From positions 620,001 to 684,000 of the forward strand of contig JAUFOQ010000001.1 in the NCBI GenBank assembly GCA_040285855.1: 64,000 bases of DNA. The letters are read 5' to 3'. This document shows, in pieces, positions 3,769 through 64,000 of the stretch. Under the pieces are notes generated by a model that saw nothing but the letters and a program-made list of their open reading frames with translations, did no database searches and was not told the origin of the DNA. This stretch comes from Eukaryota sp. GEM-RC1 (lineage: Eukaryota). The translations under genes and the position numbers were made by a program. Position 1 is the first letter of the stretch. Every line of letters begins with the position of its first letter.

Positions 3769-4689
3769 GTTCTAATTGAAAAGGTACATGCACGAAAAAT
3801 GGACCACTATAGTTTCTTCCAATTGACTCCAATTCACAAACACGATCGTGTTTGAAATTCTATTCAACATCATGAGATTGTAAATTCTTTTTTTGAATAA
3901 CATCCCAAAGTGACGTTGCTGAAGTGTTTTGGGTCCACCAAACAATCATCTCCAAATTTTCAAGAAACTCTTCCAAACGGATGTGCAATCGCTACCTTCT
4001 CCTGAAATCTTTACGGATGATGATGGAGGTTTTATCTAAAACGTCATTACTGACCGTCAACTGTTGTTTTTACGGGAAATATAGTCTCTGATTGCTGAAC
4101 ACTTGCAAAAGATGTCTTTGTGCCATCAATACATCACTACTTACACCGTTCACCGTAACTAACGTCACTTCACAATTAACGTCACTGACGTAAATCACTG
4201 CATGTCCCGATTTTTGGCTTGGATGACGTTAATTGTGAACAGTTTCTTGAGCGACTATAAATAAAATATTAATATGTATTTCATGTTTTTGATGTAACAA
4301 CAAGAACAGAAGGTAACCAGAAATTTTCTTTTAATCTTTTCTATGTCAATACACTCGTCTTCCGAAATTGTGGCTTCTCTTGCAAGGGCTCGATCCCTTC
4401 CAAATCAATCTCCTGCTGCTGAACTAGAACACATCAACATTCATGCCTCTTCAGAGTCAGAAATTGAGCTTGAACTAAACGAAGTTAATCCGGAGATTAG
4501 TGAGGTCGAAGTTAAGAGCCGTTCCACTGCACGTCACGTTTAGACTAAGTCTAAGAGACGTGAGGTCATGCAATGGATGGATGATGAGTATCAGAAGAAG
4601 ATGATACTCCATTCCGAGAAATCTGGACATCACTTTGGGAAAAGGAAAAGATGCAGTTGATGGCTAACGAACTGGCAGGCCAATGCACG

Positions 4690-11673: not shown

Positions 11674-13211
11674 TTAAACGATTTCCAGAACATGATCACT
11701 ACAAAGTAACAAAGCATATGGAAAGTAATTACCACTACATAATCTGGGAAGAATTCCAGTAAGACTAATTGATGCATTACTCACGGATTTGATTGTTAAA
11801 GTGTGGTGAATTAGATTTGTAGTGATTTCAAGTAATTCACCAGGATTCCACTTAGTCCTGTTTCCTGAGAGACAACCACGAATGATGCCACCACTATTTG
11901 AACGACAGTGAGCATGCATTTCACAATCCCTAAAATGAAACTTTGACTCGTCAATGACTCCAACATAAAGACCACCTGTATACCCCTGGTACCTCAACTT
12001 CCAAGTATATACATTACCTGGAAGAAGTGGATCTTCTCCCAAAATATTTCTATACACATTACCATCACTTCCAACAACAACAACTCTCTTTCTATCCTCA
12101 CTAACTTGTAACTGAGAATGTTTCCTAGTTTGAGAGAATCTAATGACTTTTGATTGAAGAACAGATTGAGATATTAGTTGAGTTTCAGTGGTTGTCTTAA
12201 TTAGTTGTTCGATTTCTTGTTGTAATTTCATAATTTCAGTAAGAGAGTTGGAATTTGTGGCATTTAAATTCTGAATTCGCACGGGCGGAGCAGAACTTTC
12301 TATCTTCAAAACTTGAACATCTGTTGCTAAATCAGTAGTAATTGAGTTCATCTCAGAATTGTGACTTTCTACATCAGCAATTTGGTTGTTGAATTCAGAT
12401 ACTTTGGTGATGAAGTTAAAAGTTTCTTTCTTCAAATCAGAATTTTCCTTCACCAAAGAGTCAAAATAAAGATTCTTAACTCTTGTAAACAAAAACTTCA
12501 TCAAATCGGCTTCCAATTCTTCAACATCTTTTAAAGTAACAAACAGAAACTCATCCCATTGTTGAAAAAAAAAGGCTTCAATTGAACATGAATTTAAAAT
12601 ATGTAAAAACTCATTCAAATTGATCCTTTGACTTATAATTGATTCCACCATTGATTTGATGAACCACGACTGTGATTGAGTGGAAGTACAGTAATTTACA
12701 AGCGTTTTAAACCCTTCAGTTGTGATTGCCATCACGTCATCAATTAACAGGTCGTCAATCTTGGAAAGAAAGGACCAACGAATTCCAGAGCTCTCAAGTC
12801 ATTTCTTTCATCGGCTTCTTTAATGAACGGTTTTAACCAAGCCCATGTTACAAGATGAGTGTGTAGGTGGTTTTCCACGTGGTGAATGAGTTTATCCACT
12901 TGGAAGTAGTGGACGAGGTAAAAGAAGTCGTAGGCGTTGTCCTCGTTGAGGGTGAATGACTTTCCAAAGAAGGACTTGAGGAAAGCGAAGAAGTTGTCAG
13001 AATCGACGGGAAGATGGGAGAAGTCGATGGGGTTCTCGAGTTTATCCCCAAACTCCAAAAACCAGAGGGATCGGAAGTACGTTGAGTGCGCAGCAAGGAC
13101 AGATTTGTTCACCTCGATGGATTCCCCACCGAATGAAATGGTTTGGTTACACAAAGAGGGTTCATCGAGAATGATGGAAAGAGTTTCTGCTGGGGGAAGA
13201 GAGAATGACAT
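11674..13211 (-). CDS. BTB/POZ - coiled coil - SPRY/B30.2-like protein with one frameshift at ~12765
   Basis: BTB motif NKSVLAAHSTYFRSL...HYFQVDKL and SPRY-like LGEDPLLPGNVYTWKL...VGV...FPY. The paralogue at 63751 shows one base missing here in TTCTTT-CC; restoring it joins the two ORFs. ATG (MSFSLPP) at 13211. Confidence 0.85.
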
Positions 13212-13385
13212 TAGAAGCAATAGAGAAGGAGATAAGTAACTGAGACCAAAACGGGAGACCAATGTTCTTGTGGCCTTTTAACAAAACTACACGTACATGT
13301 ATGAACCTCCACTGAAGAGTGGTCGTTCATTTGATGGTAATGTAACACTTCTACTGTAGTATCTCCTCCCCGCAACCTAACTCGG

Positions 13386-14149: not shown

Positions 14150-14581
14150 CTGAGAACGTTCAAAGTCTTCTGTTTTTAAACTCTGTTGATAAAAACTAAT
14201 TGAACAATACCTATTTGGTGGCTTTATATACTCTAAAACCGTGTAATCAAACAACTGTATACGAGCTCTTTGAACAAGATCCCTACAACATTACCTTGTA
14301 CACCTATATCATAGAGACGGTATAGCTCTATGTACTGTTGATTCAGAAACATTTATATTACAGTGCAAAGCTACGAGATATAAAATTTCTCTAAGATATA
14401 ACAGTGGATCTGACTCCAAAACTGATTTAACGAAGGCCTTATCTTCAGAGGTAAGTACTCCTAAATTGGCAACAAAGCTGTAAGTGTCCTTATATCCAGC
14501 GTCAGGATTTATCCACTGAGATATGGTAGATTGGTTCATAGTGAAGAAGAATGCAACTTCAGCTTGAGTTTTGTTCAACAA
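14150..14581 (-). mobile_element. IS630/Tc1-family transposase N-terminal remnant
   Basis: HTH segments QSTISQWI and DPLLYLREI...VSESTVHRAI, with a degenerate LVFI(N) downstream. Confidence 0.6.
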
Positions 14582-14619
14582 AATTTCAAACCTTTTTTCT
14601 TCCTACTATTTCAATTTTC

Positions 14620-15490
14620 CACATTTCCAGCATTGTTTTCACACACCAAAAGAATGTAGAATTGAGAATAATAATAGCATTGGCAAAATCGATAAAGTCT
14701 AGTAGATAAGAATTCTTTTCAACTGTGTATGCAAAGATTGCAAGATATTAAACAGTTTCTGTCCAACCATTGATAACTATAGCAAATTCGATTCCAAGAG
14801 ACTAAATACTGAATGATATTTCTTAAATGTTTTTTTAGAGATTTTCCATCGTCTACAAGTGTTCTACAATTGGTCAACGAAAGAGCCGTCTATGACTGAA
14901 TCGAAACTATTTTCAAACCGAAGCTTATTCTCAAATAGAAAGTTCTTCAAACCACCAACGAAAGCACTTTTACCTAACTACTCAGCTCTTGAAAAACCAA
15001 CACTCCCAAGTTTTGGACTGAAAAAGGAATTTTGGAACTATTGATTTGATTTCAACCAAATTCCTAAAAATTGAGTTCTCAAAGAGTTGAACTCAGCAAA
15101 ATCAAGAGAAAGCTCACGTGGTAAAGATCTAAGAAGATGATTGATTTTCGATCCAAAACAGACCGAAAGTACTGAAAAAGCCAAGTTGTATCGATTTTAA
15201 GATCTTGTATCGCCTGTAGTTGAACTTTGATTTTATGAAGATAATTCTTGGGCACACTCTCAATCTGCAAAGGATTGTAACCCAAACAACCGACTGCTTT
15301 CACCTCTGTTTTACATTGACATGACGTAGAAGGATTACATTTCTATGGGTTTGTCGTTCAAGGATGGTATAGTTTACATCAAACTCTTTCATCATTTTTT
15401 TTAAAGGAAGCTTTATCAACAATACACAGAGGTTGTTTAGTTTCGAGAATGAAGCCTATTATGATGTTCAGTTTTCCTTCAGCAGATGAA
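14620..15490 (-). mobile_element. CRE-clade RT thumb-region fragment (inverted duplicate of 28880-29757)
   Basis: Homologous to 50980-51420 and shares both flanks with the 28880-29757 copy. Confidence 0.7.
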
Positions 15491-16415: not shown

Positions 16416-18284
16416 GACCCAACGGCTCCTTTTGCTAGGTATCTCAGTCTCAGCTTGATCTCCACTGGTAGCCACCCTTCGTCAGATGCGAGATACATAC
16501 CAGAACCAACAAAATTTCGACCGCAAAAGGCAATGAATCGTCCTGGAGACAGTGGTAGCCTGAGAATGAAGATCACGTGAAACAAATCTATTCAAGTGAA
16601 ATTAGGTGTATGACCTGTGACTGCTTGAGCTCTTCATATGATTAAAAAGCTCACGAGCAGTCATGTTGTCACTTGAAACCAAGCACCAGTATCATGGATA
16701 GAGCAACAACAAGTTCAAGAAGTCCGCTGGAACTCTGTCTGTCACAATGGGAAATGGTTTTGTAATGAGAGAAGTTGTCCAGGCAGGGCCACAGTCTTTT
16801 GGATTTTAGATGGTTGTAGAATCCATATTTCTCAAGATCTACCTTAGAAATACTGGCACTTGTTACTTTATCTCAGTGCTTGGTGTAAAGACTGAATTTT
16901 TTACGAATCTGTTTGTATTTTTGGACTCGAAGTCAAGTTCTTAGTCAAAATTTTGAATAAACGCCCTTATTCTTTTTTATTGATTTAACTATAAACTTCC
17001 ATCAATACAAATCAGTTTTTTACACCAGAACCACCAATTGGTGGTTGATAAGGCCATAAAACACCTGAAAAACACACCCTCTTCGGTTGATGTTTCCAAT
17101 GAACATATGGAGTCAGGGTTGGCTTGGCAAAGGAGTCGGAAGTACTTTGGTAAGAAAGAAAAAGAAAGGTCTACGTCTCCAAACAGTTGAAATTGAGCAT
17201 CTGCAACACTTCTGAAGGTCTGCATGTAGGAGATGTGTTCAATTGTTTAGATACAGTAACAGCTGTTCTTTCAAAGAACTTAAGTGGTTGACAGTACTTG
17301 CACTTTCAGTTGTCAGAATAGATTACTTTGGGATGTAAGTGGTTAGAGACTGGTGCAAGAGTTTTGAGTTTGAGCAAGTATGTTCAAGATTAACAGAGTG
17401 AATCATGAAGGGGCATCCAACATTCAGGGCATATGCAGTTAGTGTCCAGGTACATACGTCTTCTTGACAACGGATTTCGATGGTCCAGTAAATAGTCCTT
17501 TGGAATTTGCTTGGCAATACTGTAGGTAACTAAACTGTTGACACAGTCTTTAAATAAAGTCTTCTCCACAATGAGAAGACTGTAATGAGCAAACCAATAG
17601 CAAGGTTAACTTCTTTCCAATAATATCAGTAATAGACTTGGTAGGAATGCTGTCTTTGAGCAATCTTTGACCTTTAGGAATGGGTGTCTTAGAAGTAGGA
17701 GATACTAAAGCATCAATAGTGTTAACTTCAACACGCACAGCTTCTTTTTTCATCTTCTTACGTTCTTCTATTCTTGCGTCTGATGCTTGGATTGCCACAA
17801 GCTCTTCAGTGTTCTTTAAGGACTGACACAATGATATATGTTCTTTTTCCAGCGGGTACAGTGAGTAATGTCCACGAACTTGCCACACGCTGCACTACCA
17901 AATCCCCCCTTTTGAGTAAAAGTGTCAAAGTCCTTCACTTTTGTGACTTTCCAAATGGGGTTATCAAATTTAGTTGCTCTCCAATCGTATACTAAAGGAA
18001 GTTCGACAGAAAGACCTGTGGATGTAAGCAAGATATGTTCTTCCATGGTGTAGATGGGGGAATATTGTACCAATTTGTAAGTCATTTATTGCTTCCTATG
18101 TTGAATATACATACATACTGTAATATTAATAGTATACTTCTTTTTTAATAGTTGAACCCAACCCTCGTCCTTAACAATGATTATGATAGCAATAAACACA
18201 AGGTAATGTGAAATCTTAATAATTGAATATCACAACAATCACATCACAAAATCACATCACAACCATTTGTGATTCGCAACTATG
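16416..18284 (-). mobile_element. Duplicated chimeric transposase remnant, copy B, with a hAT-type CATAG terminus
   Basis: Direct repeat of 7866-9707. It extends into ATCAC subterminal repeats ending GCAACTATG at 18284; a similar end lies at 44629. Confidence 0.75.
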
Positions 18285-19701: not shown

Positions 19702-20650
19702 ATGGCATTTACTTACAACACGCTACTGAATCCTGACATTGACTTTCGCACCAAGTGTACCAGTGCATCTTAAGATACAATCTGTAGAGCTGTCTGGCCG
19801 TACTTTGTCTTAGACATCTCTCAAGAACAAATTACACACCATTACTGTGTATCACAGAGCACCATCTCCAAATGGATCAGGAAAGTAGTGTTGAGATGGT
19901 AAATTAAGGCTACTTACATGGACTTTGGGTACACAATATGTTCCAGATATTCTGATGTTTTCCAGAATAAACGTATTTCAACAATGAGGCTTTGGTTATG
20001 AATTAGTCTCACTGAGACTAATTGTTGTGACCAGTGTAGCTTTTGAACAACATATTAATCTACAATTGGAAGAATTTTAATCGAACTGCTTGTGTTTATT
20101 GATGAAATAAGCTTCCGAAACGAACATTTTATGAACACCCATGGTTGGTCATTGAAAGGAACTCCGGCTATTGTAAAAGAACACGTTCCAATCATTCATG
20201 TATTGGTGTTGTTGCAGCCATAGATTACCGTGGATATGTGTTTTGCCATTTGAGGAAAGGTCACTACTGCCGAACGGAATTTGTGGATTTTTTGATAGAC
20301 CTTTGACATCAGGAAACGTGTGCAGGTATCATGATAAACGCTCTATTTTTATTATGGACGGATGTAGAATTCATGTTTCTGCTGAAATCAAGGAAACCAT
20401 GCGGAAGGTGGGCATATATTACAAAATCTTACCCCCTTATTCACCAGAAACGAATCCCATCGTATGCTTTTTTTTGGTGTTTTACGACGAAAAGTGAGGG
20501 ATCTTTCTAAAGTCTTTGACTGCCGGTGTACTGTCATCCAACAGTCTCTTTTGAGTTTAAGGGGATATAATTGTGAAAGGATAATGTCTCATTCTGGATG
20601 TCGTGATAGAGAATATTTTAGATCACCTTATCTAAGACCAAATCGATGAT
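19702..20650 (+). mobile_element. IS630/Tc1 (DDE_3-type) transposase pseudogene
   Basis: VSQSTISKWI HTH, LVFIDE, GWSLKG, IMDGCRIH and LPPYSPETNPI motifs spread across frameshifts. Confidence 0.8.
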
Positions 20651-23009: not shown

Positions 23010-23755
23010 CAGTCAACCCTGTCTATAGCGTAACCCTCTACTAGTATATACATTGTAAAACTCTTTATAGCGTTATTTTTCACCCACGCGACATTTTTTC
23101 CAGAACGACAATCTGTTTGTCTCTGTTACGAGTGTAGTATGAAGTGATAAAGTACCTCTAGCTAAACATTCCATTCTATTCATCATATACAACAACTTGA
23201 TGATGCTTTGACAGCCGTTGTCTCACATCATTGTTCTGTTGTAGTTTCTCATCTTCCTTCAAGGTCTACATCGCTTTACGAAGCAACCCCAGTTCACACA
23301 CGTAGAAAACATTCTTCAACATCTACATTTCTCTAAATACAGACATCTCTTGTGAATAGAGTCAACAGAGTAAAGATATAACGTCGAAGGCGCACCATCC
23401 TCAAAACGAAGGTGTTTAGGTCTATCACCTCTCAGACTTGAAAGACTTCTTCCCTTGTATCGCCATCACCTCTCTGCTGAACCAATACTATAACCTTAAG
23501 ATACGAAGACGAAGAGTTTATCGTGTTGTAAGAACAAATACCAGCGCAGAAATGATAAAATGTGTACTATGTGACATAGGTATCCCACCTACATGCAGAA
23601 GAAGACGGTAGAGGAAGGGTGGATCGAACATAGATCATGATGTGAAGACATCATCATTCATCCTTCCTCCCATATACAAATATGGTTTATGTGAAGCTAC
23701 AACATAAAAATATCTTCAGTTGAACTCTTCGTTCAATTTCATTGGTCAAAATTTG

Positions 23756-24548
23756 GGTTTTGACTTATCCTGTACCATAAATTTTGACTTATCCTGTACC
23801 TGTTGACTTAGACTAATTTCAATACCCAATATCTTACACAAACAAACATCTTAAACAATGATTTCTATCTAGTCTACGTTTCTGAACAAAACTTGAGCTT
23901 GTGATCTTTCTTTCCACACTTCCCTCATAAGCTCAAATACTTTACACCGTGTCATTCTTTCTTGCAGTTACCGCACTTATGTCTTCCGGGTCCTGATCTT
24001 CCATAATAAGAATTATTTGCCATTACATTCATACATTTTCGATTGACTGAAGTGAACTGCCTGGAAACGTATGTCTCACTTGGTGACAATCAAGTGAGAC
24101 TTGATCTTCCAGTTTAGCACAACGTTGTTCATGTTAGAAACTTCAAACAATGTCTTTCTTATCATTCATTCCCTCCTCCTGATTCTTGGATGGAATTGAC
24201 TCCCCATTTTTCTGATAGATTGACAGTGTGTGAACTTTTACGATTGTAAAACACAACCATTTATGTTTCAAATAAAGTTTATTGTTCTCATTGCACTATT
24301 GCTCGACTACGGATAAGATGTGACTGTCAAACTCTGATTGTTGAAGAACAATATCGTTTGTGGGTGCTCAATCCAGTACTCAAACATAATCTCTAGAGAT
24401 GGTCTTCGAATAATTCAAAAGTTTGAGCATCCATAAGATTAGCTGGAGGTATATAATCGATTTCATCAAACATCTACATGCACGAAATCGATCTAAGTCA
24501 AAAAGTACAGGATAAGTCAACATTTATGGTACAGGATAAGTCAAAACC
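23756..24548. mobile_element. Non-autonomous Mutator-like element (793 bp)
   Basis: TIR GGTTTTGACTTATCCTGTACCATAAA with internal TTGACTTATCCTGTAC repeats. Perfect 9-bp TSD CAAAATTTG (23747-23755 and 24549-24557). Confidence 0.9.
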
Positions 24549-26789
24549 CAAAATTTGACATCACAACATTTTGGTCTTGACCGCTGATCTCATCATTGAC
24601 GTGGTTGTTGCATCTACTTTGGCGATGAACGAATGGCCCACTTCTAGTTCTCTTCATTTGCTTTGTATATAAAGACTCAACTCAATTTGTAAAACTACAC
24701 AGGGTGTTTATTGGATATAGCGTAAAACTGGTTATAGCCAATATCTCAACTCATGACTCTTTCACTTATCAATTCTTATAAATAATAAATGTGCGTGTAC
24801 GAGTTGAAGATGCTTCACATACCTCCAGTTATTGTAGGAATTACAATAATCCATGAATTCTTGTAATTACTGTAGTAATCGTAATTGTAGGAATTCTAGG
24901 AATTCCTGGGACATGAAGCCAGTGATTGAAAAGTATGGTTAGTACAAATGCGGAGATATCTTCCGTTTCATGTTCGATAATGAAAGTCATTCTTGTTATT
25001 AAAGTGGGCAATATGTCAATTTCAGCATTTTACACTTTCTTAACATTGCACTACATCAAGAACTACCCTTTTTATTGTGTGTTGCTAACTTCAAACTCTT
25101 CACACTGTTTGATCACTCTAACTTTTTAGTATTTCTGTTTTCTATTCAACACGCTAGTTTGATTTTCTTCTAAAACGTATTAACTTCTTTCAACTTTGCA
25201 GTCAAAACGCAACTTAAAACAGAATTTTTTACGAATACTTTTTCAACCGTCATTGTTTTATTGCTCCTTGTATGTTGTCAGCATCTCTTTGCGTTTTATA
25301 AGATGACTTAATGTGGTAATTATCACAATGATCGGATACTGCTACTCCATCTAACGACCTTTTCATGGTAAATAGTCCCTCAATTCTAATATTTCAGGTC
25401 ATCTACAAAGCCATACACAAGATCTTTATCAATTCCTCAGCGTTCTGGATCCCACTGTCTAGCAGGTTTTTGAGTAACTTTTGTCGAATCTCTTAGTGTG
25501 ACAAACAAAGAACAGAAGCTACTCTCCTGAGCTTCCGTATCCCATGTCTTGATGTTTTCAGAAGTACCAAATGAGGTGAGAAAATATGCTCCATCCATTG
25601 AGACACTCATAAGATTGATTAAGGTCTTGATCTCACATCATTACACCCATCAAAAATTACGGTCATGACGTTTATCTGGAAACTTTGTTGAAGAGCTTGC
25701 TCACTTTGCTTTTCATATCAGCCTCTACCTTTGGCAACAGTGGTCATGTTTTCGTAAGATTATCATGTAAGTGGTGGAACTCATACCCCCAGATTTTATG
25801 ATAAATGACATTTACAGTGCCACGTGGCACCGTAAATTCAACCTTGGAACCCCATCACTGGGCCTAGTCACTTGTATAGTTTATGCCTCCTTCATTCTCT
25901 CGATCTCAACCCTCTTGCCTAACGGAATGAGGAGCACGTTTTCTTATTTCATCTTCGTAATTTTCCATGAATTGAATGCTTTCTATTTCCAAAAAGTTCG
26001 TAATCTTCTTTACTTTCCTGGTAATGGTCAAGGTGGAAATTTTGAAAGTATTGTTGGTCGATCTATGGCCAGATGCTACTCTCTGTATCGACTGACCGCA
26101 CCTTTCTCTTATAAAATGAAATCTTCCCTTCAAAGTCATCACATGTCCTTCATCACTGATGAGTTGATAGTAGGCATTTAAGAACATATCTTTCTTTCAG
26201 TAAAATTGGAGCAAAACCTTTTAAACTCCATAAAAAAACTGTGATTTTATTGGGTTCTACTGTACGGGTGTTACTTTGCGCCAGTTTTGTTAAAGATGTA
26301 CTGAAAGTTGTAATAATCCTAGAAGTTAAGAGTGGGAATCGGGTGATCACGATACGTTTTGAATACATCCTTTATTTGACTTTGTATGTGGTTGATAAGT
26401 ATTGTGTAATATACAGTGGAGTTGATGGGAAAATTAGAAGAATATTGTGTGAATATATATATATTATGAACAGTAACTGAAATTGGTTTGCTCTTTTGCA
26501 CACTTATATCAATATATTACAATTAGTTTTTATCAACCCCAAAAGTCTGAACAACTTCGCTGGTCCATTGTTTCATGTAGGTCTCAATAACTTGGCTCTC
26601 TATAGTTTGTTGGTGTTCAAAAGATGGATACTCAAACAATTGCATCTACTGCTAGACATCTTCTATTTCATACAGGGATTCCGTTTTGTTGTGTTGTATT
26701 GTATTGTGTTGACGTTTCAAATTTTCGGACAATAAATTTGTGCAATAATTGCAAATAATATTTCTTTGAACTTCAGTTATCAGTGACTT

Positions 26790-28879: not shown

Positions 28880-29757
28880 ATCATCTGCTGAAGGAAAACT
28901 GAACATCCTAATAGGCTACATTCTCGAAACTAAACAACCTCTATGTATTGTTGATAAAGCTTCCTTTAAGAGAATGATGAAAGAGTTTGATGAAAACTAT
29001 ACCATCCTTGAACGACAAACCCATAGAAATGTAATCCTTCTACGTCATGTCAATGTAAAACAGCAGGTGAAAGCAGTCCGTTGTTTGGGTTACAATCTGT
29101 TGCAGATTGAGAGTGAGCTCAAGAATTATCTTCATAAAATCAAAGTTCAATTACAGGCGATGCAAGATCTCAAGATAACCACTTGGCTTTTTCAGTACTT
29201 TCGGTCTGTTTTGGATCGAAAATCAATCATCCACTTAGATCTTTACCACGTGAGCTTTCTCTTGGTTTTTCTCGTGAGTTCAACTCTTTGAGAACTCAAC
29301 TTTTGGGGAATTTGGTTGAAATCAAATCAATAGTTCTAAAATTGCTTATCAAGCCTTTTTCAGTCCATAATTTGGCGGTGTTGGTTTTTCAAGAGCTGAG
29401 TATTTAGGTAAAAGTGCTTTCGCTGGTGGTTTGAAGAACTTTCTATTTGAGAATAAGCTTCGGTTCGAAAATAGTTTCGATTCAGTCGTAAACGGCTCTT
29501 TCGTTGACCAACTTGTAGAACACTTGTAGACGTTGGAAAATCTCTAAAATAACATTTAAGAAATGTCATTCATTGTTTAGTCTCTTGGAACCGAATTTGC
29601 TATAGTTATCAATGGTTGGACAGAAACTGTTCAATATCTTGCAGTGCTTACACAATTGAAAAGAATTCTTATCTACTAGACTTTGTCGATTTTGCCAACT
29701 CTATTATTATTCTCAATTCTACATTCTTTTGGTGTGAAAAACAATGCTGGAAATGTT
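28880..29757 (+). mobile_element. CRE-clade RT thumb-region fragment
   Basis: CFGSKINHPLRSLP and FGGVG motifs; inverted duplicate of 14620-15490. Confidence 0.7.
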
Positions 29758-32599: not shown

Positions 32600-33497
32600 T
32601 TGCTTTCATTATCGTGTTTTGATATCAAAACTAAGATAAAAATACTGATGAATAGAAATACGAAATCAAAAAGACACGGACATATGCAGAAATGATGTGT
32701 TCAGGAGTTCCAAGTCATTGTCATTAATCAAATGTAATTCCAATCCTCTAATCATGTTAAAAATCAAAGAAAGTATTCAACTCTAAATTTCCCAATCAAG
32801 TACAAGAAAACAGACTGTACCTCTGCTCCAAAGAGATGATCAAATGAATGTAGTTGAGGAAGGTCTTTATAAACCATAGAAAACGTGTTTGATTGAAGAA
32901 ACACGTTGACTGATTGATGAGCAGATTCAAAGAAACGACGGATCACATAGCATCTGTTTTAGCGAATGAGAAAACTCTTACTTCAAATGACGGAGCGCAA
33001 GACGATGGTCTCTATGATTGACGTTGAGAGGACTTTAAAATACAAACAAGTGAAGAGTGATCAAGATCACTAAAGACTGCTGAAGAGGTAAGCAATGAGA
33101 ACGAAGCAGTTAGTGTATCAGAGTTAGGTTGCGGGGAGGAGATACTAGAAGAGGAGGAAACATTGAACACTTAACTGCTAGTCAGTGTTACATTATCATC
33201 AAATAAACGACTACTCTTCAGTGGAGGTTCAGGATTAGACATGTAGTTTTGTTAAAAGGCCACAAGAACATTGGTATGCTGATTTGGTCTCATTTACTTA
33301 TCTCCTTCTCTATTACTTCAAATGTCATTCTCTCTTTCCCCAGCAGAAACTCTTTCCATAATTCTCGATGAACCCTCTTTATGCAACCAAACCATTTCAT
33401 TCGGCGGGGAATCCATCGAGGTAAACAAATCTGTCCTTGCTGCTCACTCAACGTACTTCCGATCCCTCTGGTTCTTAGAGTTTGGGGATAAACTTGA
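32600..33497 (+). pseudogene. Inverted duplicate of the BTB gene head plus its divergent partner; BTB truncated after ~58 codons
   Basis: ORF 33322 MSFSLSPAET...FGDKL; reverse complement of ~13040-13920. Confidence 0.85.
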
Positions 33498-33499
33498 CA

Positions 33500-34250
33500 T
33501 GTCTATCTCCTGAGTCTCTGTTGTTCTTGAATCTATATCTCATCTTCTTCATCGCATCCTCTTGATCATATCACTCCGTTTCCATTGTTTGGACCACGTA
33601 TTGATTCGATCCTTCCCTCTCAACTCTTACAATCGTCCGCGGTCCTCGTTCCTGTGTCTTCTTGTGTTTCCGTTATCACTTGTTCTCCACCGCGGTTTGC
33701 TTTCAGTTGTGGTACAGCAACCATATCTTCCTCAATATCACTTCTTCTTCCACTTACTCTGACTTCTCTTCATCTTCCTCGTCAACAAGAGATGAAACTC
33801 GTCTTGACCTTGATCTCTCTCAGCCTAACTCATCTAACTCGCCTCTGTGATCGTTTCCAAATTCCTTGTTTGTAAATCTATCATCGTTTACACATGTTTT
33901 CTATCTTACTGCATTCTGTAACTCATGAGCTCTGTACACGTGATGAGAGAAACTTGATCACGTCATTCCTGTTTTTTAAAAAATTCAGAGAATTGTTTCG
34001 TTGAAGTCATCATTATGTTATAAGAAACTGCTCTTTGTTGACTCTTCAATCAATTATCGAGATTTATCCTTTATCAAATTGACTTTAAATATTGTTTACT
34101 AATGCACTGACTTTCACTGTTTCCAGTTATTTATGGCATCTACTATTATTGAATTGATTAATTGAAGAGTGTTTTTCCATAAAGTCTATATGATGAGAGA
34201 AACTTTCATCATTGTTGATTGTTGTAAAATTGACAGTAAAAAGTCAAATG
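33500..34250. repeat. Dispersed ~2-kb repeat, copy 3, fused to the truncated BTB gene
   Basis: CCTGAGTCTCTGTTGTTCTTGAATC and GTGATGAGAGAAACTTGATCACGTCAT match 6510-7000. Confidence 0.8.
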
Positions 34251-40801: not shown

Positions 40802-42238
40802 CATAGATGGGAAATACAACTTGATGCCTCTGTATTAATACAAATACAAATACAAATACAAATACGACGAATACAAATACACTATTTCTATCACGTGAGT
40901 GTATTTCAATTGTATTTCAGGTGGAAACATATGTGTTACTTTGATAAGACCATTTAAATAATCAACTATACAATGAAGTGGTATTGCGAAAAACTTTCTA
41001 CGTTTCTTCGTTTTCACGCCGAAAGTAGTTGAACTGTGGTTTTCCACTATAGAAACCACTAGCAGGGAACGCTAATAAGTATGTTATGAGAAACACGTGT
41101 TATAAGTGGCTTTAGTTTCATTTTGACCTAACCTTTTCTTGGTTACATAAACCTATCTTTGCTATAACTGGCATCAAGTACATATGTATTGGACTATTTC
41201 AGAGGTGCATCATTTATTGGCTGACATTATTTAAATATATATGATTTGAAGTCACACATTCAGCTGAGAGTACAATACATACAAAATTGTCCTGAAATGC
41301 AGCTGTTCATCGACATTAGGTTGTTCCTTATTTATCAATTGTTTCGATGTCACATTGCTGTCAGCCAAAGACAATAAAAAGTAAGGTAAAATAACAAGTA
41401 TCTCGACCGTACTTCGGTAAATCTTTCCATGAACCTATGACAGCGACATTACTGTGCAGTACAGCTGAACTGACCTTAGAAACCAATCGTCGTCCTTCTG
41501 TTAAGCCACAAAGTCTTTATAATCATCTGTATCTCCTTGAAAACCGTGAGTATTGGGACTTTACCTTTAGTTAAATACAGCGTTAACACAAGAAGAGATA
41601 AAGGCGATGATGGTGAAGTCGTAGACATTGATGTTGATGAGTTAAGTTTGTTTCAATTAGTATTGTTGTCTTACAAAATGGCATCACAACTAAGGTTCAT
41701 ATTTATTGCAAAATAAGGAATCTGAATAAATATGTATTTTCATCCAATCACAATATCATTTTTATTTAACTATTTATTAGTCCTCCCTGATAGAAACTGA
41801 CCAAAAATCAATATTATGATAGAGAGTGGGTCAACACTCAAGATAATTATGAATTAAAAAGTATAGAACTTCATCTACTGGTAGATTCAACTTCTAAGGT
41901 CTTGAGCTGTAAACATCATAGTGGGAGAGGATGCAAGTGTTTTTGAATCAGTAGAAGTCATAACATAATTGATGAATTGGACTCTCCTGTTCACACACAA
42001 CTTCACACTACAATTGTACGTACTTTTGCAGAAGAAACATTGTATTTGGTACTCAAACAGTATTTTTGTCACATGAATCTGCATTGAATATGCAAATAAT
42101 TAGAATGAATAAAACTAAATAAGAAATAATGATACTAAAAATACCAAAAAAATACAAATAATGGCTCTGTATTAATACAAATACAAATACAAAATACAAA
42201 ATACACAGAATACATGTATTCTGTATTTCCCATCTATG
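40802..42238. mobile_element. Non-autonomous hAT-type element (1437 bp) with a dimerisation-domain remnant
   Basis: TIR CATAGATGGGAAATAC, perfect TSD TTCATAAA, AAATAC repeats, internal AELTLETNRRPSVKPQSLYNHLYLLENREYW. Confidence 0.92.
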
Positions 42239-50979: not shown

Positions 50980-52425
50980 ACATGTATTTAGTCCGTTTTT
51001 GGGTTCCTATTTTGGCAATCCTTTGCAGATTGAGAATGTGCTCAAGAATTACCTTCAGAAAATCACAGTTCAATTGCAGGCTATACAAGATCTCAAGATC
51101 GATAACCACTTGGCTTTTTCAGTACTTTTGGTCTGTTTTGGATCGAAAATCAATCATCTTTTTAGATCTTTACCACCTGAGCTTTCTCTTGGTTTTGCTC
51201 GTGAGTTCAAGTCTTTGAGAACTCAATTTTTAGGGAATTTGGTTGAAATCAATAGTTCCAAAATTCCTTATCATGCCTTTTCAGTTCAAAATTTGGTGGT
51301 GTAGGTTTTTCAAGAGCCGCGTATCTATGTAAAAGTGCTTTCCCTGGTGGTATGAAGAACTTTCTTTTTGAGAGTAAGCTTCGGTTCGAAAATATTTTCG
51401 ATTCAGTTGTAGACGGCTGTTACGCTTTATTGAACTCTTTGGAGGAGTTAGTTCAAGGTTTGCCTATTGAAGTTTGGAACAAAAGTTTCCCGAAAAGTGT
51501 TTCCTCTATTCCTGATCGGTCAATTGAATTTCTACCTTTTGCTGTAGTTAAGTTACAGACTGCAACATTACTTGGGTTGGAAGACTTGGATTTTAGTAAA
51601 AGACTTAGTGTGACTAAGATTGATAATCCCGTCTTTGCAGCTTTTTTATGTGACATTCAACAGTGTTCTAGCTTCATCACTCAACAACCTAGACTCTTTG
51701 GTTTACATTTGAACAATGATGCTTGGAAGCAAAATATGCGTCTTCGATTAGGTTTATTCCCTAGTGGCTTGCTAAATAATTCAATCTGTGTTTGCGATAA
51801 CCGATCTACAGCCACGTTTCGTCATGTTGTTAGTTGCAAGAAATTTCTGCAATTTCGATCTGTTCTACATAACGCTGTTCGTGACGTTACTTATGAAATG
51901 TTCAAATCCTACAATTATAGTTGTAAAATTGAACCTCTTCTGAAACATTATAGTGACAATAACGTGTTTGATTCTCGGCGTGGTGACTTAATTGCTCCTT
52001 TCCTGGATTCATCTCAAGTTGTGGTTGATTTTACTACAGTTGACCCGTTTGCAAAGGTCTACCAAGACTCCATATTGAATGATTCGAATGGTCATCTGGA
52101 AAAAGCTGAACACCGAAAGTGTTCAAATTATGCGGATGCTTTGCAGAAGCTTAATGAAAATCTATATTCTAAGTTTTCATTTGTTCCATTTGCCATTTCA
52201 ATTTTTGGTAATATTGGTCCAGCCAGTTTAAAGTTTTTCAGTGATTTTAGTCTTTTATGTCGTTCTAATGGCAAGGTGTTTAATAGCGCTGTATGGATCA
52301 ATCGAATTATGTTCGCTCTTTACAGAAGCATTCCCAAATATCTACTAGTATGTTCTATTTATTCGAAGTTGCATAAGGACAATTCTCGTGTTGATGTGGA
52401 GAATTTGACTTCTTTCATTTTCTGA
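50980..52425 (+). mobile_element. 5'-truncated CRE-clade non-LTR retrotransposon: RT thumb plus CCHC finger and PD-(D/E)xK restriction-like endonuclease
   Basis: GSYFG, KINHLFRSLPP and FGGVG (after a frameshift), then RLRLGL, CVC..H..C, HNAVRD, EP, RGDL, DFT, EHRK..Y and FVPFAISIFGNIG. The RT palm is absent. Confidence 0.88.
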
Positions 52426-53940: not shown

Positions 53941-54035
53941 TACCAGGCTTGACTGGGTTTGAACCTAAACCTTCTTTAACAAACCGAGCTGAACCTAAAC
54001 CTAAAACTTGAAAACCGGTGGGAATCTAAACCTTT

Positions 54036-54518: not shown

Positions 54519-54578
54519 GATTGAAGAGAAATAGGTAAGAGGAATATGACAACGTTGTCAAATCGATCTAAGTCCACT

Positions 54579-54826
54579 TGTTACCACTAAGCTAATAGCG
54601 CTATTAGCTTAGTGGTAACAAAAGGTTTGCTGGTGCCCTTCGTCGGGTCTTTCTTACGCTACCAGCTTAGCAGTACCTCCAGGAAATAGCTCACCTCTGT
54701 GTGGTCCATGTTTTAGGACATACCATTACTTGTTCGACCTCACCCGGACTCGAACCTTCGACCTTCGAAGAGCAGCAAACCTTTTGTTACCACTAAGCTA
54801 ATAGCGCTATTAGCTTAGTGGTAACA
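54579..54826. mobile_element. 248-bp TGT...ACA element with palindromic 54-bp TIRs and a 4-bp TSD
   Basis: CACT on both flanks (54575-54578 and 54827-54830). Each TIR is a 42-bp perfect palindrome plus AAAGGTTTGCTG. Confidence 0.9.
54620..54807 (-). ncRNA. Predicted tRNA-derived Pol III transcript (~188 nt)
   Basis: A box TAGCTTAGTGG (54800-54790) and B box GGTTCGAGTCC (54756-54746) at tRNA spacing. The first TTTT is at 54623-54620. The cloverleaf stems do not pair. Confidence 0.6.
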
Positions 54827-55494
54827 CACTCTTAGAAATCCGTTCTCCTTAGAACTACATGTAGTTGTTGGACGTACAAGAAATCGATTCACAAAGGTCA
54901 AATGATAGTGATTCGGACTTTTGATGTATATATTCTGTCTACTATTGTTCCTGCAAAATGAAAAATTTATGGCGTTGTGTATAATGTGGTACATCTACCC
55001 ATAGTCTACATATTTAATTGTGAGCTTGACGTATTGTTGACAGTCCCTGTACGTCGCTATACCAAGTATGAGTAAAATACGACAACTGTAAAAATTGGAA
55101 AAGGATTTACAGCAAATGTATCCAAAAGTGAAACCTCAAGGGGCTCTTTTTCATCCCTTGTAAATAGAAACATCAAACCACTATTGATTCCTTTTAAGAG
55201 AAAATAACTAGTGTTGATGCCCCCGAGAGTACGCTACAGACTTTCAACCGTTTCAAGTTCAAGGGTAAAACATGTCCAAGGTTGCGTTGTGTGGGATGTG
55301 AAGAACTAATATTGTCAGCAATCGATGTATCATATCCAGTAATTTAGGCTATTTTTCGTTGGTGGAATTCGTTGGAGGCCAGATTTTCGGCGTGAGTCTT
55401 CTCAAGTCAAGTTTGACCTGACTTGACTCATCTCACTTCATCACGTAAACGCGTTTTCAACAGAATTTCCTTTTGGAACGTGCCCATTTGGAAT

Positions 55495-58510: not shown

Positions 58511-59974
58511 CTAACCTAGAATAGTAATAGTACCATAAGGTAGAGTGAAATAAGGGTAAACAGTCTCATTTTGATTTACAGTAAGTTCACCAGTTAGATA
58601 TTTCTTCAATGAACAAATGTCTTTGAAAGAGATACAATTATTGACTAAATCAACAGTAACTTCAAGAATATCACCTGAAACAAACTGCTGATCCGTCCCT
58701 GACAAACCAGTTGACCCATCAGCGTTGGAATTACACGTGATCACTTGCAACTCAGAGGAATCAGAGGTGACACGTGCTACTCCAATTGAGAAGGGGTACC
58801 TAATGGAATAAGAGCTAGTATGAACAAGTCTTACCCTCCATTGGTAAATTCTGCCAGGCTCAAGAGGAGTATCGCCCAGAACATAATGTTTTGGTGAACT
58901 AGAAGATTGTTGAGATGAAGCAGTTTTAGAGTTTGAACTTATAGTAATACTACTAGACTTGTTAGTAGTTGAGAATTGAAATGTAAGTTGACACGGTGTA
59001 GCTTGAATAATTCGTCGTAAGTCAATTAGTTCTTTTCCAATATTTCTGCTCTTGATTTGCACTGTTCATTAGTAGTAATGGTTTCAAAGACAGGCGATCT
59101 TAAACGATCGAAATGGAATTCCATAAGAAAGTTCTTGAGTCCAGTAAACTTATCTAATGGTCTTAATAACAATTCGTTCCAATCAGAAACTGAGAGTAGC
59201 TCAACATTCATAGAATTTAAAAATTCGTAAAGTCTTTCCTTATCTAATTGGTTCTCAACGTAAGACATAACGAGACATTTAACATAGAACCGATGTGAAA
59301 CTGACGTAGAACAGAAAGGCAGAAGTACAGAGAGAGAAGAAGGAGAAAGAAGAGGAAGTTCATAGTCACAGTCAGTTTTAAACTCATTTAAGTGAGGACC
59401 AACGTATTCTAGTGCTCTCTTATCTTCAAGTTTGTCAGCTCCAACAATGAAGTTAACCACCCAATCCCAGGATTGGAACTTCTTCTTCAAAACAGAACAT
59501 AGAAGTTCGGGAATCTTGTCAGCTTGGAAGTAGTGAGAGAGATAAAATAGATCGTAAGCGTTGACTTTAGTCACTGTGAAAGGAAGATCGTAGAATCCAC
59601 GGAGGATGGAGGTGAGGGAATCGATGGTGACCGGGAGATCGGACAAGTCCAGAGGGTTTTCATCTTTGTCTTTGAATTCTAAGTACCAAAGGTTTGCGAA
59701 GAACTTGGAGTTTGTTGCAAGGATACCTTTCATTACGGGGAACGTGGAATCCTTGAAGACGAGTTGTTGATCGGAGAACTGTTCATTTAGGAGAAGAGAA
59801 GATAGAGTACCATTAGCGCAGATTTCTTCATCTCCATCATGAATACTGTCAGAAAGATTGGTCTCAGAGTGTGGTGTGTTGGTGGTTTCTTCAATATTTC
59901 CATCTACAACAGGTAGAGTTTTGAGAGCAAATGGTGATTCCACATCGTTTGGAACACCAAATGAGAAAAGACAT
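58511..59974 (-). CDS. Divergent BTB/POZ - SPRY-like protein with two homopolymer frameshifts
   Basis: BTB motif KGILATNSKFFANLW...HYFQADK and SPRY-like LGDTPLEPGRIYQWRV...IGV...VYPYF. Adding one A at ~59035 joins the ORFs; removing one T at ~59967 gives an MSFSFGVP start. Confidence 0.8.
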
Positions 59975-60289
59975 TAGAGTTAAGGGATTTCAAACGCACT
60001 CCATATTTGGGTATCGACACTTTTTGTGATGTGATATTTGTGAGTGATTTTTGTGATATTTGCGATGCTTGTGGTGGTCCAAATAAACAAAATATGGTGA
60101 TATAAACTAATTGAAGAGTATACTCGATCAATTTTTGCTTTTGTGTGTGTATTTTTGTTCGATTTAGAATACTCTATCGGAATGAATGCAAGAGATCACA
60201 CTTACATTCTGTCCTATTTGTCACACAACCACCAAAAGGAACTCACTGATCACTGATAGTGATAGTGACGATTTAGCGACGATGCAGGG

Positions 60290-60840
60290 AATTGTTTTAC
60301 AAACAGAACAACTTAACAAGAGAGCTGCAGAATCTCAAATGATGTCTCAATCAGTTTCTCAATCAAAAATGATTAAAGTCTCTCAAACTAAGAAACTTTA
60401 TCAGTTTCAAGTTTGTGGGAATAGAAACAGAGTTGTTGGAACTTGTGGTAATAGTGTGTGTAGAAGTAGCTTGGGACAAAATCCACTTCTTCTAAGTAAT
60501 GTGTATACTTGGAAGTTGAGATACCAAGGGAATCCTGATGGTCTTTTTGTTGGAGTCATTGACAATTCAATGTTTGATGTTGATGGAGATTTTATCAGAA
60601 TGATCACTGTTTTCAAAGTAGTGATCGCGTTTATGGTTGTCTCTCAGGAAACAAGACCGAATGGAATCCTGGTGAATTACTCGAGATCAATGCAAATTTT
60701 ATGAATTACACTTTAACAATCAAATCCGTTTGTAATTTTTCGATTTATCTTAATGGACCTCTTCCCAGAATTAAGTAGTGGTAATTTTTATTCGTACGCT
60801 TTCTTATATCATAGTAATCATGTAATCTGTAATCGTTAAA
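60290..60840 (+). pseudogene. SPRY-only decayed paralogue
   Basis: LGQNPLLLSNVYTWKLRYQG...VGVID, then a frameshifted GCLSGNKTEWNPGELLEI. The 3' flank 60890-60960 matches 11555-11625 inverted. Confidence 0.85.
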
Positions 60841-61669
60841 TACAGCTGGTAACATTGTTAAAGCGGGTAGGTCTCCTCATTTAAAGAAGTGATTCAAATT
60901 AATTTATGAATTCTGAAGTCAATTTCAGTGGAAGACATCAACCACTGGAAGTTGACACCATGATGAGTTACTTGCTTTAAATAAAGAAATTGATTGACGA
61001 GACTGCTTATATTGCTACTCGGAAACAACGTGTGGATCCATTTGCAAGAGGGGCTTATTAAGCACTTCAACCACCAAAAAACCGATTTGTCGTGCTTAGC
61101 TGATGACAACACACGATTTCGGTCATTACCATCAGTTGAAGTGTGAACTTATATGTGTGAGCTTATGAAAGATAGTCGCTGACAGTGATTAAAAAAGTCG
61201 ATCATAAAGAAACTTCATGTACATGTATCAAATTGTGGTTTTTCAATGTATGGGTTGTCTATTTTGCTGATATTGAGAAGAATTGTGAGAATCACCACTT
61301 CTCAGCGAGTGGTGGGCTTTTATTGTGTTTGAGGTCCTTCAGAACTTTGTACGCACCGCTTACTGTCGTAGATTACTGGACAACTACGCTTGTGAGGTTT
61401 TGTGGTCCATCTGACCTTTTCACAACTTTAATCTTATCTTCCTCATGTTGAATTGGAAGAGAACTAAGTGTTTCTTAGTCAATTGATTAGGAATCTGGAT
61501 GTACACACTTTCACCGCAAACCACACCCACAAAATTGCATGAGCACTACTCCCGGTCTTCAGCTGTTTTGGCATCGTGACCTTGCTCATCTTCTAGACAA
61601 ACGTACTGAGAACCTAGTTTATTACCAATAAAGACCATAGATACCACGATCATCGTGCACATTCATTTT

Positions 61670-61736
61670 ACTCTATATAGTGCGCTTCTGGATATAGTGC
61701 GTACCAAAATGAGCGCACTATATCCAGGGTAGACTG
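61670..61736. mobile_element. Solo pogo/Tigger-like terminus
   Basis: Three ATATAGTGCG motifs (one inverted) ending CAGGGTAGACTG|TA; no partner end was found. Confidence 0.5.
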
Positions 61737-63315
61737 TACTAACATTACTACAGTGAAGTTGCTTCGATAGTAGACTTTTCATTTTAGATTTTTTTATAGT
61801 GAATTGTGGCTTTTGTTTCCAATGGTCTATATTGTGTTTAGTTTTTTTGTGGGTTCTATGTTTGAGTACATAAATCCGCTTTGTTTTAGTTGTGGAATAC
61901 GCAAGTACTGCCATCTTCCGAATAGAGATAAGTTATGATGTTCAGTAATTTCAAACGATCCAGTTTATGAACAAAAATCCCCACAACTATTATCACTGAA
62001 GTATATTCGCCCTGTCGATGCAATGTCTAAACACTAAAAATACAGTCTAAACTAAAAGTATTACTTTTATTAATTTCATTGTGGACGACATCTCTGTTCC
62101 TAAATATTGATGCTACTGTTCCATCTCTCATTCGCCAACGTTTGTGAAGAAAACTTTTCTGAGTCCCTGAATTATATCAATGGTGGTCAATGCTTCTATG
62201 ATTACACAGTAGACATCTTCATCATCCTGACCCTAGCAAGGTGCAGTTTATTGATTGAATGTGACAACAATCGACCTCTTGTAGCAATGTCCGAGTTGAT
62301 CTTGGAATACTAAACTGCCGCTAACGTTTCTTATAAACATAACCTAACCACTAAACTAGTTGACAAGTTTTTGAATGACCCTGCTAGTTTCTTCTCATCT
62401 CCTGCTTTCTATATACAAATCTCACACAGAAATCTCAACCATTCAGTCTTTAACAAAATAGGTTTAGAACACGACCGACAACAGGCTGTCTCCATTACTT
62501 TAGAAGACTTGTAGGCTGTCAATACTGGTGTGGTTGCTGTAAACGCGTCCCGGCGCTCGAGTAAATCGTTATACGAGTCGGGGACATCAACCATGTGATC
62601 TATTCCGTATTCTATTGAAAGACTGCTGTTTACTCCCAAAGCTACCCAGCCAGTACAGCAAATGACTGAAGATGACCGGTTGGCAAAGGACGATGCATCT
62701 TTTGTAGTTCAAGGTCTCCTCACTGTGATTGCCTTAAAGCGAAATCCACGTGAGAATCTTGAAAAACAGATCTTTGTCGGAGAAATCCACACCTCATTGG
62801 AGATCCAGCTAAGCAGAATTCACGAACACCTTTCATGGCTACCAGGCAATCATACTGATTAGTGGAGTAATTTGTTAAAGGCAATAATGATATTTGTATT
62901 CTTCATAAATATCGCCCTTCAAGGTCGCTCAAATTGGTCAACATACTAGTTCATCCATATCACTCAGTTGATAGTCAAAACGAGAACTGATTGAATTAAT
63001 GGTGTTGATACCGATAATGTGTGATGACGTACCTCATGTATCGTATAGTCTGCTGTGTTTTCTTGTAGGGCCTTCGTAACAAATACCAATTTTCTCACAC
63101 ACCTCAATCACAAATACCACTTTTCTGAATAACATCTTTTATAAATACCAAACAACACAGAAAGTCTAAACCTCTTCTTCACAGCCTGAGCTACTATATA
63201 TTTCGTATTCATCTTGCCAAATTTGATCGTCTTCATCACTAAGTGAATCAGTGCCACAAGAACATTAGTTTCCAGTTTTGGTCTCGTTTACTTATCTCAT
63301 TTCCTATTGCTTCTA

Positions 63316-64000
63316 ACGTCATTCTCTCTTCCCCCAGCAGAAACTCTTGCCATCATTCTTGATGAACCCTCTCTATGTAACCAAACCATTTCATTCGGCG
63401 GTGAATCCATCGATGTAAACAAATCTGTCCTTGCTGCACACTCCATATACTTCCGATCCCTCTGGTTCTTAGAGTTTGGGGATAAACTCGAGAACTCCAT
63501 CGACTTCTCCCATCTTCCCGTCGATTCCGACAACTTCTTAGCTTACCTCAAGTCCTTCTTCGGAAAGTCATTCACCCTCAATGAAAGCAACGCCTACAAC
63601 TTCTTTTACCTCGTCCACTACTTCCAAGTGGACAAACTCATTCACCACGTTGAAAACCACCTAAACACTCATCTCGTAACCTGGGCTTGGTTAAAACCGT
63701 TCATTAAAGAAGCAAATGAAAGAAATGACTTGAGAGCCCTGGAATTCTTTGGTCCTTTCTCTTCCAAGATTGATGACCTTGTGATTGATGACGTGATGAC
63801 AATCACTACTGAAGGCTCAAAAATACTTTCCAAGTTCTGCCTTTCCACTCATCAATTGTCTTAGTTCTTCCCATCGATGGAAATCTATTGTGAATCGTTT
63901 TTGATTCAGTTTTTGAATATTTCAAATTTTTCAATTGGGTTTCTTTCTTTTCAACAATGGGAAGAGTTTCTGTTTGTTCCTATAAACGATGCTTCTTTAA
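63316..64000 (+). pseudogene. BTB(-SPRY) paralogue, runs off the window
   Basis: Near-identical BTB to 12744-13211. The start ATG is replaced by ACG (63316), and TGG has become TAG at 63862-63864. Confidence 0.85.

Follow-up and report, generated by a model that had tools for sequence, protein, structure and literature searches.

The Locus and Its Surroundings

The window (the whole 64-kb stretch of DNA that was analysed) is repeat-rich eukaryotic DNA with a GC content of 32–40%, and it carries BTB-domain genes and transposon debris. The BTB-domain genes lie at 11674–13277, 33283–33510, 58511–59973 and 60186–63864, some of them followed by SPRY-like pieces, and they belong to a lineage-specific expanded family. 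Relatives of a BTB protein of the window made up four of 1,117 candidates, namely three Eukaryota sp. GEM-RC1 proteins and the protein itself, and the RT-encoding relatives of the RT-element fragment in the window (6 of 3,628 candidates, all with PF00078 only) come from Eukaryota sp. TZLM1-RC. Together, these two sets of relatives place the window in the Skoliomonas lineage, and we infer that it derives from these free-living metamonads (PMC11316075). In the available text of the genome paper and its searchable supplements, we found no characterization of the repeats of this lineage (PMC11316075).

Several other mobile or repetitive sequences are found in the window. Fragments of a DDE_3 (IS630/Tc1-type) transposase, together with a weak transposase HTH, occur at 20177–20497 and 14312–14602. 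The RT-element fragment (51256–52425, plus strand) is the 3′ part of a non-LTR retroelement that has six longer PF00078 relatives with 62–70% identity; its C terminus presumably resembles the restriction-like endonuclease of CRE-type elements, and related pieces are present at 14621–15489 and 28881–29756. A TIR element of about 1.44 kb with broken frames (40802–42238) is flanked by an 8-bp duplication, as in hAT elements, and an element of about 0.8 kb (about 23745–24559) has 76-bp inverted ends that are 91% identical and contain internal repeats. A 1.85-kb dispersed repeat is present twice (7868–9707 and 16418–18236; 94% identical) with an 18-bp perfect palindrome in each copy, and its frames match no Pfam family. 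Finally, a segment of about 0.5 kb (about 3265–3770), whose imperfect inverted ends hold many short palindromic repeats, may be a MITE, and within it lies an 18-bp TGT…ACA palindrome (3299–3316).

The element described here lies at 54579–54826 (Table 1). To its left, a small gene on the minus strand (54518 to 54036) has a signal-peptide-like start, two cysteine-rich repeats and one in-frame stop; it matches no Pfam family, and its Atlas matches reach at most 0.81. About 60 bp separate its ATG from the element, and the ATG lies downstream of the Pol III transcript predicted below. Three 13-bp repeats with a spacing of 30–31 bp (53960–54033) lie about 550 bp to the left of the element.

Table 1. 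Features of the Element in Window Coordinates, with RNA Nucleotides Counted along the Minus Strand from 54807
Feature	Positions	Strand	Remarks
Target-site duplication CACT, left copy	54575..54578		
Whole element	54579..54826		248 bp, TGT...ACA, no notable ATG-initiated ORF
Left TIR	54579..54632	+	54 bp, perfect; 100% complementary to right TIR over 54 nt
Left perfect palindrome	54579..54620		42 bp, itself TGT...ACA; identical direct repeat of right palindrome
First minus-strand T4	54620..54623	-	Predicted to end Pol III transcription and to give the primer 3′ end
Predicted Pol III transcript	54620..54807	-	About 188 nt
S2 3′ strand	54620..54632	-	RNA nt 176-188; predicted priming helix of 13 bp; duplex -17.2 kcal/mol
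PBS-like 18-mer	54631..54648	+	Minus strand fits tRNA 3′ end with CCA; post hoc
S2 extension beyond TIR	54634..54642	-	RNA nt 166-174 with nt 34-42, one G·U
Internal antisense stretch	54656..54675	-	RNA nt 133-152; pairs with nt 1-20 (helix S1)
tRNA-derived head	54735..54807	-	RNA nt 1-73; letters of D-loop, variable loop and T-arm keep tRNA register
B box, strict consensus	54746..54756	-	Single copy, outside TIR
S2 5′ strand	54773..54785	-	RNA nt 23-35; candidate priming site for the RNA's own 3′ end
Right TIR	54773..54826	-	54 bp, perfect
Right perfect palindrome	54785..54826		42 bp; axis 54805/54806, two bases inside tRNA +1
A box, strict consensus	54790..54800	-	44 nt from B box
Target-site duplication CACT, right copy	54827..54830		

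Element Ends Are Inverted Repeats Built from Palindromes

An earlier note, made from the sequence alone, had described a 248-bp element with TGT…ACA ends, CACT on both flanks and perfect 54-bp TIRs, each holding a perfect palindrome. All of these are present, and the palindromes are each 42 bp long. Since they have 21-nt arms and no spacer, they also give a 43-nt direct repeat. No other perfect palindrome in the window is as long (the two measure 44 and 42 nt in this comparison, and the next reaches 20 nt), and among TG..CA pairs in the window with a 4–6 bp flank repeat and a perfect TIR of at least 7 bp, the element ranks first by perfect TIR length (54, with 29 and 14 next). A 4-bp flank match is expected by chance with a probability of about 0.005 at the composition of the window, and the insertion target at this one site reads C-CACT-C. 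As DNA, each palindrome is predicted to fold into a hairpin of −18 kcal/mol with TGT/ACA at its base. No polypurine tract was found beside a terminal repeat, CCTTT preceding the repeat on both strands, and when the flanks were joined in silico, no open frame was regained at the insertion site. Ends of the form TGTNR, together with a 4-bp TSD, are a hallmark of Ginger and Gypsy-type integrases, according to the available part of the Ginger description (PMC2836005). We conclude that the element is a real, young-looking, integrase-type insertion, and insertion of this type is very probable.

No sibling copy of the element was found in the window, where no match longer than 15 nt exists elsewhere, the RT-element fragment included, and the RT relatives of that fragment share no tail with the element. 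Among the 150 longest of the 161 open frames in the window there is no integrase, Ginger or IS481EU transposase or other matching partner for it, and its own longest open frame (60 aa) has no longer protein among 34 candidates. BLAST of the element against phages and plasmids returned pieces at E values of 3–10 only, none covering 80%. A 20-base arm has no match in viral contigs and one in metagenomes (stretch L001), and a degenerate palindromic A-box pattern was found in neither viral nor prokaryote genome contigs; the viral and prokaryote collections are not eukaryotic genomes, so blanks there say little. L001 was rejected as a sibling: it has no palindrome, TIR or core match, and the identity is to the A-box end of an unrelated tRNA-head-like repeat (2441–2624 of L001, minus strand) that shares 20 identical bases of the A-box region, has its A and B boxes 94 nt apart and looks like an animal SINE.

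A Putative tRNA-Type Promoter Is Aligned with the Palindromes

On the minus strand, half of the palindrome had been read as a tRNA A box followed by a B box at tRNA spacing, and this pair is indeed the only strict one in the window. The strict A box is found at six places in the window, four of which are the palindromes of the element, and the strict B box at one (54756, minus strand); requiring both at a spacing of 25–70 nt leaves one pair, or two with one looser pattern pair. The chance of a B box at tRNA spacing is about 2e-4 for the strict pattern and 9e-3 for the loose one. Counting from 54807 as +1, the T-loop letters fall on canonical tRNA numbers 53–58.

The position of this promoter relative to the ends is precise. 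The tRNA +1, which the earlier note placed on the palindrome axis, lies two bases from it, and the first T4 on the minus strand is found, as described there, at the inner edge of the far palindrome: it runs from 54623 to 54620 and ends on the first base of the left palindrome met in this direction. Apart from this base, which is the last of the palindrome in window coordinates, the left palindrome stays outside the predicted RNA. The coincidence of the tRNA +1, the palindrome axis and the boundary of helix S1 (see below), and the placement of the terminator at the palindrome edge, are non-circular facts. The plus strand has a mirror A box, no B box and an internal T4 at 54711. In the literature searched, we found no direct evidence for T4 ending Pol III transcription in this lineage.

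The likeness to a tRNA lies in the letters of the head. Its top place in phage BLAST is the 3′ half of a tRNA-Asp in the same orientation and register, a weak match of 84% over 32 nt with an E value of about 10. A check for a tRNA gene or a known RNA family, proposed together with the first description of the element, returned neither: no cloverleaf was found in the head, ARAGORN reported 0 genes and none at 75% of its threshold or above, and two Rfam searches each gave 8 matches at E up to 10, none of them a tRNA and all far below the gathering score. A telomerase-RNA reading was also rejected, as the predicted RNA carries no template for TTAGGG.

The Predicted Minus-Strand RNA Can Form Two Competing Helices

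Folding of the 188-nt RNA reveals that its first 20 nt (54807–54788) can pair with nt 133–152 in a helix, S1, which the earlier note does not mention and in which 20 of 20 positions are paired, five of them as G·U, with no mismatch. As DNA, the internal stretch is identical to the palindrome arm at 15 of 20 positions. In the plus-strand version, the five differences become A·C mismatches, and the mirror gives 9; the RNA duplex is predicted at −27.6 kcal/mol for the minus strand versus −17.4 kcal/mol for the plus strand. The 20 pairs of S1 were reached in none of 20,000 core shuffles (maximum 18), none of 1,000 any-versus-any shuffles (maximum 16) and none of 1,812 background windows (maximum 15). 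Were the stretch simply a third copy of the arm in decay, that five out of five changes should be wobble-compatible has a probability of about 0.001–0.003 at the transition fraction of the window (0.53), and of 0.03–0.08 if every change is assumed to be a transition. Furthermore, the differences mix A-to-G and C-to-U on one strand, which a single mutational process would probably not give. S1 begins exactly at the +1 of the tRNA numbering and spans 20 of the 22 nt due for first copying. Its strand specificity, its wobble-only differences and its absence from 20,000 shuffles support selection on an RNA, and S1 is an independent pointer to a functional minus-strand RNA that starts at about 54807. 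Together, these observations are good evidence, drawn from a single copy, for RNA-level constraint on the promoter strand, S1 having been found post hoc.

The pairing of the RNA 3′ end near its own 5′ end, proposed before, is borne out by computation, with nt 23–35 as its partner. This helix, S2, follows from the TIR. Beyond the TIR, it is lengthened by 7 pairs on the minus strand only, the plus strand giving 1 pair, and an extension of at least 7 pairs arises in 1.2% of 20,000 core shuffles. S2 competes with S1: for a start at +1, the folds with S1 and S2 are predicted at −63.0 versus −62.2 kcal/mol, with probabilities of 0.65 versus 0.35 in the nested ensemble, and because the two helices cross, the folding program cannot show both together. 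General stability is not unusual, as 105 of 500 shuffles of the 140-nt core are as good and 70 of 500 whole RNAs with a shuffled core are as stable; the folding z of −2.9 takes in the TIR helix and is not independent.

Simulated Self-Priming Needs a Further Step after One Fold-Back

The earlier note held that extension of the RNA 3′ end by RT, followed by fold-back at GCGC and copying of the whole RNA, would yield exactly the plus strand with both palindromes. In our simulation, the U4 end primes a cDNA of 22 nt, and the product of priming plus one fold-back measures 228 nt (54580–54807), the right palindrome being left without its outer arm. This arm can be supplied by folding back once more or by a panhandle step, the new 3′ end re-pairing on its own TIR; provided that one nucleotide of the primer is retained, the result is identical to the element. 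The cDNA starts at 54579 from a U3 end and at 54580 from a U4 end, and RNA starts downstream of 54806 fail to reproduce the element. The match between product and element is partly circular, since any palindrome would be restored by fold-back and S2 is itself a consequence of the TIR. The promoter geometry and the 3′-end pairing of the original interpretation stand, and the single fold-back that yields both palindromes does not; the self-priming route as first drawn is plausible but overstated.

The snap-back would be the weakest step. For a cDNA ending in GCGC, no stable snap-back hairpin is predicted with 5′ leaders of 0–4 nt; at 7 nt it would reach −4.0 kcal/mol, and leaders of at least 11 nt are predicted to abolish S1. 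The hairpin needs about 7 extra 5′ nt, so transcription could start only within a narrow stretch if both structures are to form. Enzyme-assisted pairing or pairing between two molecules would probably be needed. In vitro, RT has been documented to prime by snap-back where complementarity is short (10.1101/2023.09.01.555893), and a 3′ RNA hairpin has been proposed as the DIRS-1 primer (PMC7192593, in its available part). A Tf1-type cut-and-prime route was tried by hand and rejected, since a cut after nt 20 gives a cDNA without a complementary acceptor at the RNA 3′ end.

A Model for the Element and Its Alternatives

The explanation we prefer, tentatively and at somewhat below an even chance for the route as a whole, is that the element is a non-autonomous, self-priming Pol III retroelement inserted by a retrovirus-type integrase. 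Among its parts, a functional minus-strand RNA, now or in an ancestor, is likely. Pol III would produce an RNA of roughly 188 nt, from about 54807–54811 to the T4 at 54620, as the promoter geometry suggests. In this RNA, the 5′ 20 nt would pair with the internal antisense stretch (S1) and the 3′ U-tail with nt 23–35 (S2); the two folds are predicted to lie within 1 kcal/mol of each other and may alternate or form a pseudoknot. An RT acting in trans would extend the 3′ end across nt 22 to 1; RT genes do occur in this lineage, those found carrying PF00078 only. S1 would then re-form and release the short cDNA, so that S1 may be a switch that reclaims the template and frees the first cDNA. The freed cDNA would fold back, or pair with a second molecule, at GCGC and be extended through the whole RNA, this release and transfer being the most vulnerable part of the scheme. 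A second fold-back or panhandle step would restore the other palindrome, consistent with the computed outcome. Finally, a DDE integrase of the Gypsy/Ginger/IS481EU type would join the CA ends to a 4-bp staggered cut, a step suggested by the ends and the TSD.

The main rival is that the element is a Ginger2- or IS481EU-type MITE that moves as DNA by cut-and-paste. The tRNA head and S1 would then be cargo, or remnants of a SINE or structured Pol III RNA that had been captured. This reading, which we consider unlikely but of appreciable weight, requires no unproven RT steps. TGTTA fits TGTNR, the 54-bp TIR and the 4-bp TSD fit Ginger2, and Ginger2-1N1_NV, for example, is 252 bp long with 52-bp TIRs (PMC2836005, available part), while IS481EU elements of parabasalids combine TGT…ACA ends with short TIRs and, in some cases, 4-bp TSDs, and include non-autonomous families (PMC10045372, available part). 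However, it leaves unexplained why each TIR is a perfect palindrome whose centre lies two bases away from the tRNA +1, why the outer end of the TIR is the reverse complement of the A box, why a T4 sits at the palindrome edge, and why S1 exists. The target is neither RTATAY, favored by Ginger2, nor CCGG/CCGT, favored by Ginger1, although this is one site and the sequence a preference of Ginger rather than a rule, and a palindromic TIR goes unmentioned for Ginger2 (PMC2836005) and IS481EU (PMC10045372) in the available text of both papers.

An RT could also have acted only once, on a structured host Pol III RNA or SINE transcript whose cDNA folded back at both ends and was captured by an integrase, leaving no family, which we judge improbable. 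S1 resembles the terminal stems of many Pol III RNAs, and the element is present as a single copy within the window. Snap-back is moreover generic RT behavior (10.1101/2023.09.01.555893). Against this, the fold-back product would have to end in an integrase-compatible TGT…ACA by chance, a 3′ end complementary to nt 23–35 would have to pre-exist in the RNA, and no Rfam family approaches the gathering score. Very unlikely, in our view, is a tRNA-primed TRIM of the Helenus kind, with 42-bp palindromic micro-LTRs, the plus strand as its sense and the PBS-like 18-mer as its primer site. Identical 43-nt direct repeats with TG…CA and a 4-bp TSD as in animal Helenus (PMC10886601, available part) would suit it, and the 18-mer fits a loose tRNA 3′-end register (about 0.01 expected in 30 end-proximal positions, post hoc). 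But the 18-mer sits 10 nt inside the left palindrome rather than adjacent to the repeat, no polypurine tract abuts the other repeat, the plus strand has an A box but no B box and carries a T4 at 54711, S1 can form on the minus strand only, and Helenus has both boxes inside each LTR (PMC10886601, available part).

To two further readings we give hardly any credence. The palindromes might be extruded and resolved into a dumbbell whose 21-bp stems serve as integrase ends, the RNA being regulatory only; their predicted DNA hairpins of −18 kcal/mol with TGT/ACA at the base would allow this, and repair after insertion would restore perfect palindromes, but it offers no reason for an axis at the tRNA +1 or for S1, and no resolving enzyme was identified for it. 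The sequence might instead be an artefact of assembly or sequencing, a fold-back chimera, as fold-back reads can create perfect palindromes. Chimeras, however, do not make two symmetric 42-bp palindromes with a TSD (chance 0.005), and neither a B box in register nor a wobble-only third copy is a chimera product.

A bolder claim, that the self-priming retroelement represents an undescribed eukaryotic retroelement order that uses no tRNA primer, PPT or LTR strand transfer, we regard as doubtful. If it were true, the RNA 3′ end would prime, fold-back would make the hairpin ends, the wobble antisense would act as the switch and insertion would fall to a DDE integrase; this protist lineage would then also have an autonomous partner that encodes RT and integrase and carries the same 42-bp ends. 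Such elements would be a living link between LTR retrotransposons and DNA transposons of the Ginger type. The union of an RT element with a DNA transposon of the integrase type has been proposed as the origin of LTR retrotransposons (PMC2836005, available part), and the element would be a minimal, testable answer to the question of how priming and end restoration worked in an ancestor that had no LTRs, PBS or PPT. The route would also add a way for genomes to gain perfect palindromes. Should the element be a Ginger2 or IS481EU MITE instead, its TIRs, built out of a tRNA promoter, would still be unusual.

Comparison with Known Systems

The earlier note knew of no described class with this layout. 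This holds in part: Pol III promoters in integrase-inserted mini-retroelements are known from TRIMp3, namely Helenus with a tRNA promoter and Cassandra and Ajax with a 5S promoter (PMC10886601, available part), whereas the palindromic layout was not found in the literature searched. The prior description of TRIMp3, with A/B boxes, integrase-type ends and 4-bp TSDs, thus lowers the claim to novelty. In that literature, to which subscription journals and Repbase did not belong, we likewise found no description of palindromic TIRs made from a tRNA head.

As far as the available text describes it, Helenus is, like the element, short and non-coding, with tRNA-type A/B boxes, TG…CA terminal direct repeats, a 4-bp TSD in animals, and RT and integrase supplied in trans (PMC10886601). 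It differs in its length of 311–1263 bp and in having a PPT, a PBS for a tRNA and direct LTRs that each contain the two boxes, and no self-priming was found in the same text (PMC10886601). The identical TG…CA terminal repeats of the element and its 4-bp TSD agree with TRIMs, whose TSDs measure 4–5 bp. The element instead has 42-bp palindromic repeats within TIRs, an A box per repeat and a single internal B box, and its direct repeat is a by-product of the palindromic TIRs. The RNA predicted for it reaches only one base into the far repeat and so would lack an R repeat, and the candidate primer is its own 3′ end. The TRIM features it lacks are thus boxes in each LTR, a PPT and an R repeat; there is no PBS on the promoter strand, the PBS-like 18-mer lying on the other strand only and 10 nt inside.

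In its ends, the element resembles two groups of DNA transposons. Members of Ginger2/Tdd can be of about 250 bp with TIRs of about 50 bp, TGTNR and a 4-bp TSD (PMC2836005, available part), and the element falls within the end definition of the group (TGTNR, TIRs of 40–270 bp, 4-bp TSD) with TGTTA, 54 bp and CACT. The available text describes no promoter, palindrome or RNA structure for Ginger2/Tdd, and the element does not follow the RTATAY preference (PMC2836005). IS481EU elements, from parabasalids, which are metamonad relatives, have TGT…ACA ends, TIRs mostly below 50 bp, 4-bp TSDs in several families and non-autonomous members (PMC10045372, available part), and the element agrees with their ends as defined (TNT…AYA, short TIRs and TSDs of 4, 15 or 25 bp). 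They are DNA transposons, however, and the available text describes no Pol III promoter or palindromic ends for them (PMC10045372).

DIRS-1, in the available part of its description, shares inverted terminal repeats, a transcript without the ends, an internal region complementary to a terminus, and ends rebuilt by self-templated synthesis with a proposed 3′ hairpin primer (PMC7192593). Yet DIRS-1 is 4.8 kb long and coding, uses a tyrosine recombinase and a circular junction, and its ICR is an exact complement that acts after first-strand synthesis (PMC7192593). In the element, the 20-nt internal complement matches one inner arm by wobble rather than both extremities exactly, and as RNA only; in place of the trinucleotide junction of DIRS-type tyrosine recombinases, it has TG…CA ends with a 4-bp duplication outside the element. 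Tf1 and the fungal GalEa hairpin sites are also comparable, being integrase elements that prime, or may prime, without tRNA through RNA structure beside a terminal repeat (PMC5445492, available part). In Tf1, the first nucleotides of the RNA pair with the PBS and the LTRs are ordinary (PMC5445492, available part), whereas in the element the 3′ end is the candidate primer. With SINE2, the element shares a tRNA-derived head with A/B boxes that opens a short RNA made by Pol III, predicted in the case of the element; SINE2 elements insert by target priming and carry a LINE-like tail (PMC10886601, available part), whereas the element has TIRs and TG…CA ends and no tail in common with the RT-element fragment of the window. 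Together, these comparisons suggest that the element, although a member of none of the classes tested, would work like a TRIMp3 with DIRS-like end repair.
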